Below, piece by piece: positions 30,746 to 44,236 of a DNA stretch of 48,932 nt. Where the stretch lies: positions 1 to 48,932 of IMG/VR virus record IMGVR_UViG_3300025534_000012; one strand, given 5' to 3'. Position 1 is the stretch's first letter. Every line of letters starts with the position of its first letter. A program made the position numbers and the translations under genes. The notes under the pieces were generated by a model. It saw nothing but the letters and a program-made list of their open reading frames with translations. It was not told the DNA's origin and made no database searches. This DNA comes from a virus (lineage: Duplodnaviria; Caudoviricetes).

Positions 30746-33414
30746 TTATAAGCCGCATTTTAACTGCGCCCCACAATTATCGCAAGTAGCGCAGCCACCG
30801 ATCTCGCGCACGGTTCCTTCACGGCAAATCGGACACGTATCGCCGATTTCATTACCGATATTTACGTTTGTCGATCGAACATCTTTGACGGTGTTAGTAA
30901 GCACGATTTTTGGCGTTATAACGTCATCAAACGTATTTTCCTCGGCTGTCAGCGATAACACTTGCGCGTCGCGCGACCCGTCAACGTAAACCGTTCCGCC
31001 TTTTGCGCCGCCTTTGTAAAGCCGTTCGTAAATTCGCTGTACTTGGTCGACGCCGTAACCTTTCGGTGCGTTAACGGTTTTCGATAACGACGAGTCTACC
31101 CAGCGTTGAATAACGCATTGTGTGTCCGCGTGTTGTTCCGGTGATAAGTCCATCGCGCTAACGAAATAGTCCGGTAGATTATCGCCATCAAAGCCGAGCT
31201 CCGTTACGATGTCCGCGTTTACTTCGATAAACTTGCCGAGTCGGCCACTGCGGTAGTATTTAAACGAGAAATACGGTTCTAGACCGGTGGACACCCCGAT
31301 CATGGTGCCGGTTGAACCCGTTGGCGCAACGGTAAGTAAATGCGAGTTACGGATTCCGTATTTTAATACGTCCTCGCGAATATCATCGGGCATATTGCGC
31401 ATATAACCAGTCCAGACGAAATTGTGTCGGTTACCATAACCGTGTTCATCGTCTAAAAACGGAAAACTTCCTTTTTCCTTCGCTAATTCGATAGACGCGC
31501 TGTAAGCCGTTGTTGCGATTGTCTCGAATAATTTGTCGACTAACTCATTGGCTTCCGCGCTCCCGTAGGTCAGTCCGCAATAAAGAAGTAAGTCATGCAA
31601 GCCCATGACGCCAAGTCCGATACGGCGTTCGCCAAGCGCTTGCCAGCGGTTTTCTGCGAGAAAGTACGGTGTGGCGTCGATAACGTTGTCCTGCATTCGC
31701 ACGCCAACTTCTACGGTACGTTTAAGTTTTGCCCAATCTACGGTTTTATTCGCTTTGTCCGCCATGTTGGCGAGGTTTACTGCGGCCAAATTACATACAG
31801 ACCACGGTGCGAGCGGTTGCTCCGATTGCTCGCGCCTGCGTTTCCGCAGGGATCGGACTATCGCTTCACCATTACGGTGCCGAATCGCTTAGTCTCTCAC
31901 GCTGCACGGTTTACACCTGCTTGCGCCCTGTTGCCCGCGGCTTTCGCCGGTAGGGTTCCAAGTCAATCAGATTCGGTTTTTAACGTGAGGCAAGCCGTTT
32001 AATGCATACCACACGGGTTCGTTGCGACGACCTTTTGACCGTATGCCTTTGCGTTGGTCTTGTCGTTTGCGTTGTCGATAAAGAAAATACCGGGCTCAGC
32101 GCTGTATGTTGCGCAGAAACAAATCAATTGCCATAGCTCACGAGCCTTAACGGTTCGGTACGTTTTAATCGCGAGTGGCCATTCGCGCACGTCGCCGCAC
32201 TCGTGCCAATGCTCGTTATAATACGCCATTTCTTCGGCGTTGTACGACTCAACGTCTGGGAATCGTAATTCGTACTTTACGTCGTCCTCGACGGCTTCCA
32301 TAAAATCAGCGGTAATCGCAACAGAAATGTTAGCACCGGTTAAAAAGTCGGGGTTAACGACTTCATATGTGCCGCCGTCGGCTAGTTTTTCTTGCGCTTT
32401 TTTATATGCAGTCGAACCTGGATCAAGCCGCAATAACGCCTGTTCGTATATTTCACGGTCATCGTCCGATAACGGTTTAAATTTCAGTTTCGCTTTGGCT
32501 AACCGCTTAATTTCGGGGTCAGCGAAGTTTTCCGTAAGATACCGCAAAATGCGTGGGTTTTGCATTTTTGAGATGATAAATTCGATAATATCGGGGTGCC
32601 AACATGCCAATAAAATCATTTGCGCTCCCCTTCGCGAACCGCCTTGCTCGACTAAATGCGTTAACTGCGCAATATCGTTAAGCCACGAAACCGATCCGCT
32701 AGACTTGCCGCCAACACCACGCGCAAGGGCAAGGCGTGGCCGTAACGTGGATCCGTTTGTGCCGACGCCGCCGCCTCGCGCCATGATTTCCATAACTTTA
32801 CCGCGATGCTCTGCGATTCCTTCGCGTGAATCTTTCGGGTACGGCATTACGAAGCAATTAAAGAATGTAACCTCATTACCACTACCTGCTCCGTAAAGTA
32901 TGCGTCCGGCGGGCACGAAATTATCTGATACGATTTCGCGGTAAAAATCGGCGTGTGCTTGCTCGCGTTTTGCCTCATCGGTTTCAACCGCAGCCAATCC
33001 TCGTGCCACGCGGTCAGCGATTTGCTCGTAGAATATTTCGAGTGGCTTTTCGATCAATTCGAGTGGGCGCACAACAACGCCGGTTTTCGCTTCTTCTTCG
33101 GTTAGCCCGTTTGTTCCGAGAAAATCTTCGTCAAGCGCAATCGTCGCTCGGTTATGCTTACGGTCAAGCTTCGTAATAAACCCGAGCACTAGCGCCGGAA
33201 ACTTCGGATCATCGTTAACTTTGACGATAACAAAATCGCCTTCGCTCAGCGTGCGCTTTTCGATGTCTTTAAACGCATATCGGTCAAGCATAACGAGTTG
33301 GCTTACGCCTTTTCGCGTGATATGGAAATCCGGTTTTATCGGCGTAACTTGCGGAAACACCGCAATATCTTCGTTTAGTTTACGTATATATGAATCGGTA
33401 AATGTCGTTGTCAA
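30746..33414 (-). CDS. nrdJ: class II (B12-dependent) ribonucleotide reductase, spliced: exons 33414-32008 and 31822-30746, 827 aa
   Basis: TNPCG|EQPL...CNL restored by splicing; RRIGLG, APTG, C-terminal zinc ribbon; no beta-subunit gene nearby. Confidence 0.9.
31823..32007 (-). ncRNA. group I intron (185 nt, no ORF) in nrdJ
   Basis: U/G boundaries; P1 CGUGuGGU/GCCuCACG; P10 GCUU/GAGC; P7 GAGAGACUA...GAUAGUCC. Confidence 0.9.
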
Positions 33415-41188: not shown

Positions 41189-42469
41189 TCAATCCATTGC
41201 CGCAAGCTGCGCTTGTTGCGATTCTATGCGCGCTTTTATCATCGACTCAATTCCGGGCGTTGCGATATTTCGCGCGGCGTTGTAGTCGGCATTCGTTTTG
41301 AATCCGCAAAACTGGCAATGAAATTCCGCTTGTGTTTTCCGGTTGCCTTCCGCAATGTGTCCGCACTCCGAACACCGTTGCGACGTATATTTCGGTTCGA
41401 TCATCCGTACTTCGATTCCAGCCTCTTTCGCCTTATACGCGATTTTTTGTTGTAAATCGTAATATGGCCACCGTTTCAAAAACGTGCTATTCGCGCTGAT
41501 TCCGTCGAGTTTTTCGAGTTGAATAACGCCGCAACCGTGTTTAACCGCTTGCTCAACGATAAACTTCGAGTACTTATGATTCGTAGTTTTGCGGAAATCC
41601 TCGACACGCCTGCGTAATTTTTCAATTGGCTTTAACCGCGTTACTCGACCGTGTCCGCGACGACCGTGTCCGCAATACTTGCCTTGCCGTAACAATTCGG
41701 TGCGCCTGCGCTCAATTCTGCGCCGGAATTCGCTAATTTCGCTACCGCCAATAAAATGTCGCTCGGGGCTATCGTTGAACGCGATCACGGCTGCGTTTAC
41801 AACGCCTAAATCAACGCCCATCACTTTCGACTTATCGCGCTGAACTTCGTCAACTTCGTGTGAGTACGCAAGCATTAGGTAATATTTCGTTTTAACCTTC
41901 GCGATTTCGCTGTCGCACATTTTGTATTCACCGCTTATAATTCGGTCGAGTATGACGTTCGCACCCGAACCTGTTCGTAAGGTTACGTCAACTTGCGTGT
42001 CAGTTCCGCGTTCCTTAGCGCCTTCCTTCGACAGTAACGATAGTTTGCAAGCGTAAGTTTTCGCATTGATTCGCACTAGCGACTTTATCGATTGGGCGCG
42101 GATTGGGAACGATCCATCACGTCTATATGACGGAATAGAAATTTCTCCACGAAGTATTTTCGGTTTGTCGTTTTTGAATTTCTTCACCGATTCGTTTATT
42201 GCCGTATCGACAATGGATGACCCTACAAATACCGCTAACCCTTTTATTTGTCCGTTTATATCCGCGGGTAACCCCTTGCCCAGTATATCTTTTTCCTTCG
42301 GATACTCTCCGAATCGGTCGTTATACCCGAACGAAAATTGTTGCCAATCCCACGCTAATTGAGTTGCTTTATTTTTAATCCGCCAAATGGCGTATTGAAT
42401 GTCGTGTAGTAAATTGTATAAATCCTTATCGTAAGCGATTTCGTATCGCATTGTTTTCGTTATTTTCAC
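41189..42469 (-). CDS. cas12f1: Cas12f1-like (type V-F) RNA-guided nuclease, 426 aa
   Basis: GGAGG RBS and GTG at 42469; NKATQLAWDW...GEYPKEKDILG, LRQGKY...GHGR, NHKYS, WPYYDLQQKI resemble AsCas12f1 as I recall it; RuvC D (GVDLG), E (IQLEK) and D (NADYNAA) plus the zinc finger are intact. Confidence 0.88.
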   Translation of the reverse strand: MKITKTMRYEIAYDKDLYNLLHDIQYAIWRIKNKATQLAWDWQQFSFGYNDRFGEYPKEKDILGKGLPADINGQIKGLAVFVGSSIVDTAINESVKKFKNDKPKILRGEISIPSYRRDGSFPIRAQSIKSLVRINAKTYACKLSLLSKEGAKERGTDTQVDVTLRTGSGANVILDRIISGEYKMCDSEIAKVKTKYYLMLAYSHEVDEVQRDKSKVMGVDLGVVNAAVIAFNDSPERHFIGGSEISEFRRRIERRRTELLRQGKYCGHGRRGHGRVTRLKPIEKLRRRVEDFRKTTNHKYSKFIVEQAVKHGCGVIQLEKLDGISANSTFLKRWPYYDLQQKIAYKAKEAGIEVRMIEPKYTSQRCSECGHIAEGNRKTQAEFHCQFCGFKTNADYNAARNIATPGIESMIKARIESQQAQLAAMD

Positions 42470-42499
42470 TTGTAAAACCTCCAAAATGTTCGCTTTAGG

Positions 42500-42661
42500 T
42501 TCGCACCACGCGCCTCTATACGTTGTGACTTCGCACATTGAACGCCGGCCTCGGGAATTATGCTCGCTTCTCATACGCCAATACACGTTTTGACGTCTTC
42601 AGACAATGAAAACGCGGTTAAAAGTTCTTCTCGCTTCTCATACGCCAATACACGTTTTGAC
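42500..42661 (-). CRISPR. mini CRISPR array: two identical 32-nt repeats, one degenerate repeat, two spacers (35 and 33 nt)
   Basis: GTCAAAACGTGTATTGGCGTATGAGAAGCGAG at 42661-42630 and 42594-42563; degenerate copy from 42529 matches 17 of the first 23 nt. Confidence 0.85.
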
Positions 42662-42677
42662 TGCGTAATGACCAGCG

Positions 42678-42745
42678 ATTTATTGCGTATGATTTACCTG
42701 AGCGCCGTTAGGCCTCGGTTTAAGGACGGCGAGTCGCCCTATTCG
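42678..42745 (-). ncRNA. compact tracrRNA-like scaffold
   Basis: Anti-repeat UCAUACGCAAUA (42692-42681); 5' hairpin loop CUCGC is complementary to the repeat 3' end GCGAG. Confidence 0.75.
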
Positions 42746-42759
42746 TTTGACCGCGCCGC

Positions 42760-42858
42760 TTATTTCCAGCGCTCCGTCAGCTTGCGGTCAATTTCGGCAT
42801 AAACATAAGCCGCCGCGATCATGCCGACGATGGTTAGTACGATGACTGGCACGTTCAT
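42760..42858 (-). CDS. 32-aa single-TM peptide
   Basis: GGTGGTG RBS; MNVPVIVLTIVGMIAAAYVYAEIDRKLTERWK. Confidence 0.5.
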   Translation of the reverse strand: MNVPVIVLTIVGMIAAAYVYAEIDRKLTERWK

Positions 42859-43867: not shown

Positions 43868-44060
43868 ATCGTTTTCCCCCTTTCAATGTATTATACAAAT
43901 CTCGGCGTATTTTCGCACAAAAAAGTTTAAAATTTTTATCAACCGGGCTTGTACTTGTATTGTAGCACCGAAACATACTGAAACTGTGTTTCTTGCGAAA
44001 ATTTACCGAGGGAAAAATGTTCAATTTTATGTACTGTTTTTAGAAAGTTGACAGTAATAT

Positions 44061-44084
44061 AAAAAGGCGCTCTTTAAGAGCGCC
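44061..44084 (-). terminator. intrinsic terminator after aimP
   Basis: GGCGCTCT-TAA-AGAGCGCC followed by TTTTT. Confidence 0.85.
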
Positions 44085-44092
44085 CAAATTAT

Positions 44093-44236
44093 TTAGGATC
44101 CGCTTCCACCACTTCCGCCGCCCGGATCACTAGTTATTTTTACTTGTGTGGCAGCGTTTTTGTCATTTTGTGTTATACCAACGAAAGAACTTGTAACGAT
44201 TAGTCCTAACAACAATGCAATAATCACCTTTTTCAC
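44093..44236 (-). CDS. aimP: arbitrium pro-peptide, 47 aa (absent from the ORF track)
   Basis: MKKVIIALLLGLIVTSSFVGITQNDKNAATQVKITSDPGGGSGGSGS; signal peptide plus DPGG; immediately downstream of aimR. Confidence 0.85.
   Translation of the reverse strand: MKKVIIALLLGLIVTSSFVGITQNDKNAATQVKITSDPGGGSGGSGS

Follow-up and report, generated by a model that had tools for sequence, protein, structure and literature searches.

Does the short stretch of DNA upstream of a cas12f gene in a phage genome encode a natural single guide RNA, in which the roles of tracrRNA and crRNA are joined, and how is it related to the tracrRNA of the well-studied AsCas12f1 (type V-F1, formerly V-U3, of Acidibacillus sulfuroxidans)? 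The stretch lies in a whole phage record of 48,932 nucleotides (48.9 kb; herein the window) from a phage of a spore-former, for which ORF scans identified terminase, portal, capsid, tail, DNA polymerase, primase, helicase and the AimR arbitrium receptor. On the minus strand the gene order is AimR, a sigma-like gene, small ORFs, the scaffold, a mini-array of CRISPR repeats, a gene for 426 amino acids (42469-41189) and an SSB-like gene. The reading that we favor, with a probability of about 0.58, is that a miniaturised tracrRNA of the AsCas12f1 type is encoded here and acts in cis, likely serving the neighboring RuvC-intact Cas12f as its natural single guide and likely directed against rival mobile elements; that it is a functional compact scaffold of some kind is highly probable.

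All elements of the scaffold are on the minus strand. Stem 1 (42740-42723) consists of 6 bp including one G-U and carries a 6-nt loop (42734-42729), of which positions 42733-42729 pair with the 3' end of the repeat to form a pseudoknot that has a known counterpart, R:AR-2, in AsCas12f1. The following segment (42694..42722) comprises a linker, stem 2 (42718-42697, with two bulges and a 3-bp GCC/GGC tip) and a conserved UAA (42696-42694). Anti-repeat 1 (42692-42681), which begins 2 nt past the UAA with stems 3-4 absent, pairs over 12 bp with 42638-42650, leaving a single G bulged, and is followed by a second linker of 19 nt (42680-42662) and by CRISPR repeat 1 (32 nt, 42661-42630), which is kept whole; the loop between anti-repeat and repeat is 30 nt long. 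The unit from stem 1 to the end of repeat 1 thus measures 111 nt (42740 to 42630), in agreement with an earlier note on this DNA, which had claimed a scaffold of about 111 nt including the repeat and had correctly placed stem 1, the 3-bp hairpin, the anti-repeat with one bulge, the 19-nt gap and the repeat on this strand. Overlooked in that note were the nature of the 19-nt linker, which is a second anti-repeat over the 3' end of the repeat and allows a competing fold, and the fact that 111 nt exceeds the length of an engineered 94-nt guide.

Downstream of repeat 1 the mini-array continues on the same strand with spacer 1 (35 nt, 42595..42629), repeat 2 (42563..42594), identical to repeat 1, spacer 2 (33 nt, 42530..42562) and a truncated terminal repeat (42511..42529), in which 15 of 19 letters match the 5' part of the repeat. 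An 80-aa ORF on the plus strand across the array was taken as spurious. The repeats of the clade to which the window belongs, including that ending at 42630, end at the last base of the pseudoknot, one letter earlier than those of AsCas12f1, L022 and L043 (numbers with L denote the loci compared herein), and given this repeat end the guide register of the clade may be shifted by one.

The gene next to the array (41189..42469, minus strand) encodes a type V-F1 effector of 426 aa, a size within the 400-500 aa of this type, with a PF07282 domain, for which the closest solved structure is AsCas12f1 (E 1.7e-113 over residues 5-413) and the predicted model has a pLDDT of 87.8. The RuvC residues D220, E319 and D395 and the zinc finger are intact, and these three residues and the zinc-finger cysteines are invariant in all 64 aligned homologues. 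Type V-F1 is characterized by an asymmetric dimer and PAM-dependent cleavage of dsDNA, in AsCas12f1 at a 5'-NTTR PAM; in the alignment the AsCas12f1 dimer residues W43, F48 and Y52 are kept in the window protein, with E44 replaced by D, while the PAM-reading residues H72, Y76, S92 and K96 align to P, N, D and N. The two identical 32-nt repeats plus the truncated third beside this gene, together with the stem-1 pseudoknot (R:AR-2) and the anti-repeat (R:AR-1), agree with the organization of type V-F1 (for V-U3 definitions see PMC7229846).

The RNA of AsCas12f1 is considerably larger, with a tracrRNA of 169 nt and an sgRNA scaffold of 171 nt. The window scaffold shares with it the pseudoknot loop of stem 1, the CCGAG...CUC-GG base of stem 2, the UAA and the anti-repeat, which supports the claimed homology to the AsCas12f1 tracrRNA, and the sequence that the earlier note had given for this tracrRNA agrees with the sgRNA published in the supplement of PMC8548392. 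The two loci are also alike in carrying no adaptation genes. In contrast, the long stem 2 and stems 3-4 of the AsCas12f1 type were not found in the window: 43 nt of stems 3-4 are gone and stem 2 is reduced to a 3-bp tip, so that the core, stem 1 through UAA, takes up 47 nt as compared with 70 nt in AsCas12f1 (hand count), and the proposal that the long middle stems are missing is borne out. The window scaffold also differs in its position upstream of the gene, 19 nt from repeat 1, and the protein in the absence of the D16/W17 loop.

The statistics of this single sequence are weak. The folding z score was -1.9 for 42630-42745 and -1.2 when the spacer was included; 383 of 24,458 16-mers in the window equal the anti-repeat in pairing with the repeat, as do 2 of 2,000 shuffles; and Rfam gave no match at the gathering score. 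The case for a real RNA therefore rests on covariation across loci. In an alignment of 11 cores, 92% of the cells are paired and 8 of 14 pairs are changed on both sides, a score reached by none of 500 shuffles, and controls with slid partners were 29-44% paired; the core sequences are related, the events are hence not independent, and the structure was derived from the same alignment. For the pseudoknot, at least 4 of the 5 positions pair between loop and repeat end in all 26 hand-picked units (17 compact plus 9 medium or long), and among 18 distinct types the cognate pairs average 4.39 Watson-Crick pairs versus 2.41, a value attained in 0 of 20,000 permutations (automatic pseudoknot lengths were excluded for the long scaffolds and for L005, L105, L146 and L166, where early false partners had been picked). 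The compensatory change of loop and repeat end postulated before is supported. Of 8 loci, 7 have an anti-repeat with a preference for the repeat of the same locus, the exception being L198 (1 of 40,320 permutations), and in Bacillus phage Mgbh1 the anti-repeat and repeat are unrelated in sequence to those of the window, yet form 13 perfect pairs. The scaffold is real and covaries as an RNA.

With a covariance model of the core, the window gave a single match, with none downstream of the cas12f gene, and across 99 sources there were 88 matches at E up to 1; the training sequences of the model score 43-56 bits by construction. Of 100 pattern-selected loci that have no Cas12f match, none scored above 32 bits and three reached E <0.01, two of which resemble orphan tracrRNAs. 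TracrRNA-like cores were noted at L226:2497-2559 and L214:2483-2546 with no Cas12f match in the retrieved flanks, and may represent orphan guides.

The same covariation bears on the idea that the window holds a decayed remnant, a long tracrRNA deprived of its middle by a deletion and now without function. No target was found for the window spacers, the junction of helix and pseudoknot is imperfect, with a gap 1-2 nt wider than that of relatives or of the engineered guide, and the long scaffold of L102 (196 nt) lies in the same clade, all of which would fit such decay. Compensatory changes are, however, seen among the compact units themselves, the catalytic residues are invariant in 64 proteins, the compact form recurs in several lineages, and a matching loop has been lost from the protein; decay is accordingly very improbable.

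The compact design is not restricted to the window. In phage Mgbh1, whose protein is 51% identical, this design takes up 101 nt; two Lysinibacillus plasmids (L018 and L019) carry two compact units each, of 103-109 nt, upstream of the gene; and L198 has one unit of 105 nt, in which only 9 nt separate the UAA from the repeat. In a quick tree (74 rows, SH-aLRT only) these four loci and the window, which share the design at 101-111 nt, form a clade with L102 and L104 at a support of 98. The scaffold is compact in 5 of the 6 clade loci that have one, L102 being long; none was found for the truncated member L104. The clade cores measure 43-47 nt from stem 1 to UAA. Compact units of L022, L119 and L043 are placed elsewhere in the tree, that of L043 on a long branch, suggesting that the scaffold may have been reduced repeatedly. 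Long scaffolds, a label assigned in many cases by inspection, also precede the array in L002, L006, L102 and L123, and the co-orientation of scaffold and array is family-wide. At L002 and L021, a long tracrRNA plus array occurs twice, flanking one cas12f gene on both sides.

In several relatives the unit is smaller still. On the sister plasmid L019, directly downstream of cas12f, a fully fused unit of 66 nt (L019:3840-3905), the shortest seen, has both its loop and the pairing partner changed relative to its sibling units; a spacer and then a full repeat come after it. Fully fused units of 66-80 nt, which have lost the 5' half of the repeat, occur in L019, L022, L042 and L043, those of 74-80 nt being L022:3857-3935, four sites in L043 and three in L042, and units of 94-106 nt were found in L143 and L177. 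RuvC is intact in all 10 proteins examined of the 12 neighboring such units. The units of the L042/L043/L143 type may belong to known groups with omegaRNA-like arrays. Distant RuvC-intact Cas12f-like genes (30-38% identity) in L042, L043, L143, L146, L148, L166 and L177 are flanked by dispersed compact or fused guide units, with no arrays. As to the range of the search, DNA pattern scans for new compact loci yielded, among loci with a Cas12f match, only Mgbh1 and L105; genome searches, at E 1e-60 to 1e-70, had matches in 2 of 401, 5 of 400 and 0 of 400 genomes; and the genome and metagenome scans gave mainly distant homologues, homologues of 55-65% identity being seen as proteins without their DNA.

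A change in the protein parallels the loss of RNA. The loop residues D16 and W17 of AsCas12f1 contact flipped bases of stem 3 (bioRxiv 2023.07.03.547593), and this KPxDxxW loop of about 7 residues is missing in the proteins of the window, L018 and L019. It is missing in none of 20 proteins with medium or long scaffolds, and is kept by 5 of 8 with compact scaffolds. Of 119 database homologues, 116 have the anchor motif of the loop and 102 are without the tryptophan. This distribution fits an order in which the stem-3 RNA may have been lost first and the protein contact loop second, although it amounts to one event.

Whether the compact RNA works as one molecule is a separate question. By RIP-seq, native AsCas12f1 has a separate 169-nt tracrRNA and crRNAs of 40-50 nt, although the two are co-oriented (PMC8548392), and the window RNA could likewise be a compact but conventional dual guide, in which a tracrRNA of about 60 nt is cut from the array and pairs with crRNAs in trans, the adjacency being merely the usual layout. 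Full 32-nt repeats and second-position spacers are retained, that of L019 matching a real gene at 30/34; the long scaffolds are likewise co-oriented upstream of their arrays; and the long cis hairpins formed in L005, L018 and L019 could be cut by RNase III. Against this, scaffold, repeat and spacer were duplicated as one block in L018, L019 and L022, the loops of the fused units are too short to separate, and in L198 only 9 nt lie between UAA and repeat. We regard the dual guide as unlikely, and the conclusion on miniaturisation stands even if it were correct. The odds of a single guide are raised by the fully fused 66-80-nt units in relatives, and counted in its favor are also the block duplications, the protein loop loss and a topology after the UAA like that of an engineered guide, sgRNA_dS3-5_v7; counted against it are the separate RNAs of native AsCas12f1, the competing fold of the linker, the looser junction and the lack of a promoter near the scaffold, in a scan that found 1 site versus 4.3 expected. 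Single-guide use without processing appears plausible on this balance.

The linker itself gives rise to another possibility, that it locks repeat 1 in a hairpin, leaving the scaffold to pair with repeat 2 and making spacer 2 the chief guide, the alternative folds perhaps switching between guides. The duplex of linker and repeat 3' end has -17.7 kcal/mol, equalled by 3 of 3,000 shuffles; with its repeat end covered by the linker, the RNA (-34.6 kcal/mol) is 2.8 kcal/mol more stable than in the active fold (-31.8), the pseudoknot, a duplex of -6.9 kcal/mol, being uncounted; and the ensemble probabilities are 0.87 that the linker pairs with repeat 1 and, for a transcript with two repeats, 0.91 that anti-repeat 1 pairs with repeat 2. 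The fold model omits pseudoknots, protein and co-transcriptional order, and the sister units do not show such masking in their folds: their linkers lengthen the helix into the 5' half of the repeat. The linker is unchanged in contigs of a second study (X2 and X4 are identical to the window over 42632-42760, and X2 and X3 differ from it at three places, all upstream of the scaffold), but the phage of that study is near-identical to the window phage, and its conservation says little. Masking of repeat 1 is thus improbable, and the single guide formed with repeat 1 is kept as the preferred reading.

The setting of the locus is that of an inserted cassette. In phages phi18-2 and 268TH002 the order AimR, sigma gene and small ORFs is found without cas12f, in 268TH002 with an SSB annotated next after the small ORFs; RNA, array and nuclease are a cassette inserted at a site that is empty in related phages. 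A sigma-70-like phage gene (43217..43867, minus strand) lies about 480 nt upstream of the scaffold, and likewise in Mgbh1, which brings to mind the RNA-guided control of transcription by dCas12f-sigmaE of Bacteroidetes, systems that also employ natural single guides, in tandem copies and with a proposed origin by fusion of tracrRNA and half-repeat (PMC10691335 [Altae-Tran 2023], PMC13472631 and bioRxiv 2025.06.10.658880, in which long-repeat omegaRNA-like arrays are also described for neighboring active groups). Those systems, however, are nuclease-dead, depend on an obligate sigma partner, have fixed guides of 14-16 nt, activate transcription and carry no working array, and match the window protein at E 2.3e-18, whereas RuvC is intact and the spacers are of full length in the window. 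Since phi18-2 and 268TH002 have the sigma gene order without cas12f, the sigma gene is not the partner of the cassette, and none is annotated beside the plasmid loci; transcription control of this kind is scarcely credible here. No cas family, including cas1, cas2 and cas4, was found among the 39 ORFs scanned, a set that comprised, within 1-36,200, ORFs of at least 150 aa.

Other features of the phage were noted in passing. A short ORF after aimR (44033-44234, minus strand), with a terminator behind it, resembles an AimP pheromone precursor. The large subunit of ribonucleotide reductase occupies two ORFs about 200 nt apart (30746-33414), possibly owing to an intron or as a split gene. A GTGCGAA motif is conserved 20-80 nt before the cas12f start in the window (42470-42540), L005, L018, L019, L102, L119 and L198, often accompanied by its inverted form TTCGCAC 36 nt further along, and could be an operator or RNA element.

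Single RNAs with a pseudoknot and a 3' guide are also the omegaRNAs of TnpB in IS200/IS605, which are located at the 3' end of the gene. The window differs from these in having true repeats and spacers and a scaffold upstream of the gene; its ORFs as scanned contain no TnpA family match, the scores fall far below the IS200/IS607 TnpB cut-offs, and transposon ends were inspected by eye.

Among guides made by design, a like topology is found in the working guide sgRNA_dS3-5_v7 (PMC11224166, supplement; its activities are tabulated in the review PMC11641405), in which stems 3-5 are gone and the UAA is followed by a short helix, one A and the pseudoknot. It differs in being man-made, 94 nt in length, with a full stem 2 and a core of 70 nt versus 43-47 nt in the clade; the window unit is longer, 111 nt, because the linker and the whole repeat are retained. 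The engineered CasNano scaffold has 136 nt (PMC13670948). Cas12f-MG119-28 is described as having a 'naturally optimized' guide with natural loss of stem 4 (bioRxiv 2025.08.14.670346), but its sgRNAs, joined by a GAAA loop, span 129-156 nt, with 134-152 nt given for the optimized guide, and its protein belongs to a more distant family. It is already known, then, that engineered guides reach 94 nt and that natural single guides exist for nuclease-dead Cas12f. For the active AsCas12f1-like clade, no scaffold without stems 3 and 4 was described in the literature searched, and subscription papers, patents and bioRxiv supplements, outside that search, may hold one; the accessible parts of the uCas paper and of PMC11423357 contain nothing on natural compaction, and Mgbh1 is not named among the matches listed. 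The loss of stems has to be weighed against one study in which truncation of stem 3/4 abolished cleavage by AsCas12f1 and stems 3-4 were indispensable, and against the tip of stem 2, the deletion of which was harmless in OsCas12f and harmful in RhCas12f (bioRxiv 2025.08.14.670346); both the truncation loss and the RhCas12f result were counted against the single guide.

Also counted against it was the lack of a target for the window spacers, for which searches of phages, plasmids, IMG/VR, five related records and the window itself gave no convincing target; in IMG/VR, 11 exact 16-mers were found, none extending beyond 25/35. Among contigs aligned to the array, of which X5 and X7 did not cover it, neither alternative spacers nor protospacers were seen. 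In the sister loci, one spacer matches a plasmid HTH gene at 29/33, with all four mismatches at synonymous third positions, another a plasmid primase gene at 30/34 and a third, at 30/33, an open frame that lies at another place in the genome of the L198 host, two of these three gene-matching spacers sitting directly behind a compact scaffold; all other matches of the sister arrays to the phage and plasmid collections were to self or by chance. These matches suggest that spacers may be acquired from related mobile elements, with a role in competition between such elements. The 5' flanks of the three near-matches are TCA, TTC and CTC, sites that are diverged homologues and cannot fix the PAM; with the changed PAM-reading residues, they suggest a PAM that is probably other than TTR. 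The HTH and primase matches (L019:4174-4206 and W02:C1:26199-26234) are to the plasmid's own genes and carry mismatches, as might result from targeting of sister plasmids or from escape from self-targeting. The spacer L018:2112-2145, behind the first compact unit, contains a DnaA-box sequence and may target a replication origin.

From these data the single guide could operate as follows. Read-through transcription from the upstream phage operon would produce the RNA, and a nuclease would trim it to the boundary of stem 1. Anti-repeat 1 would then pair with repeat 1, while the stem-1 loop captures the last five letters of the repeat. A Cas12f dimer would bind the core, the 30-nt loop between anti-repeat and repeat staying in place or being nicked harmlessly, and the first 20 or so nt of spacer 1 would direct PAM-dependent cutting of dsDNA. 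Downstream spacers might share the scaffold, either because repeat 2 pairs with it in trans or through looping.

A wider reading, possible but short of even odds, is that a widespread, nuclease-active clade of phage and plasmid Cas12f1 evolved natural single guides, with loss of the stem-3 contact loop and a changed PAM, and that these guides are smaller than any engineered AsCas12f guide found in the literature searched (a core of 43-47 nt, and 66 nt in the fused unit of the sister plasmid). Guide trimming is a main route to better Cas12f editors, and the literature is split on what AsCas12f1 can lose. The window scaffold resembles the trimmed guides engineered for compact genome editors, and the loci form a natural deletion series from 312 to 66 nt around a constant core, in which the clade shows stem 2 to be reducible to 2-3 bp at the tip; about 100 protein clusters likely use compact guides, probably with a non-TTR PAM. 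If the reading is true, the collapse of tracrRNA and crRNA into one RNA would have been captured while an active array persists, and the second anti-repeat of the window phage may switch the spacer that is loaded. The proposed path from dual to single guide, so far drawn from nuclease-dead end products, becomes testable with these loci.
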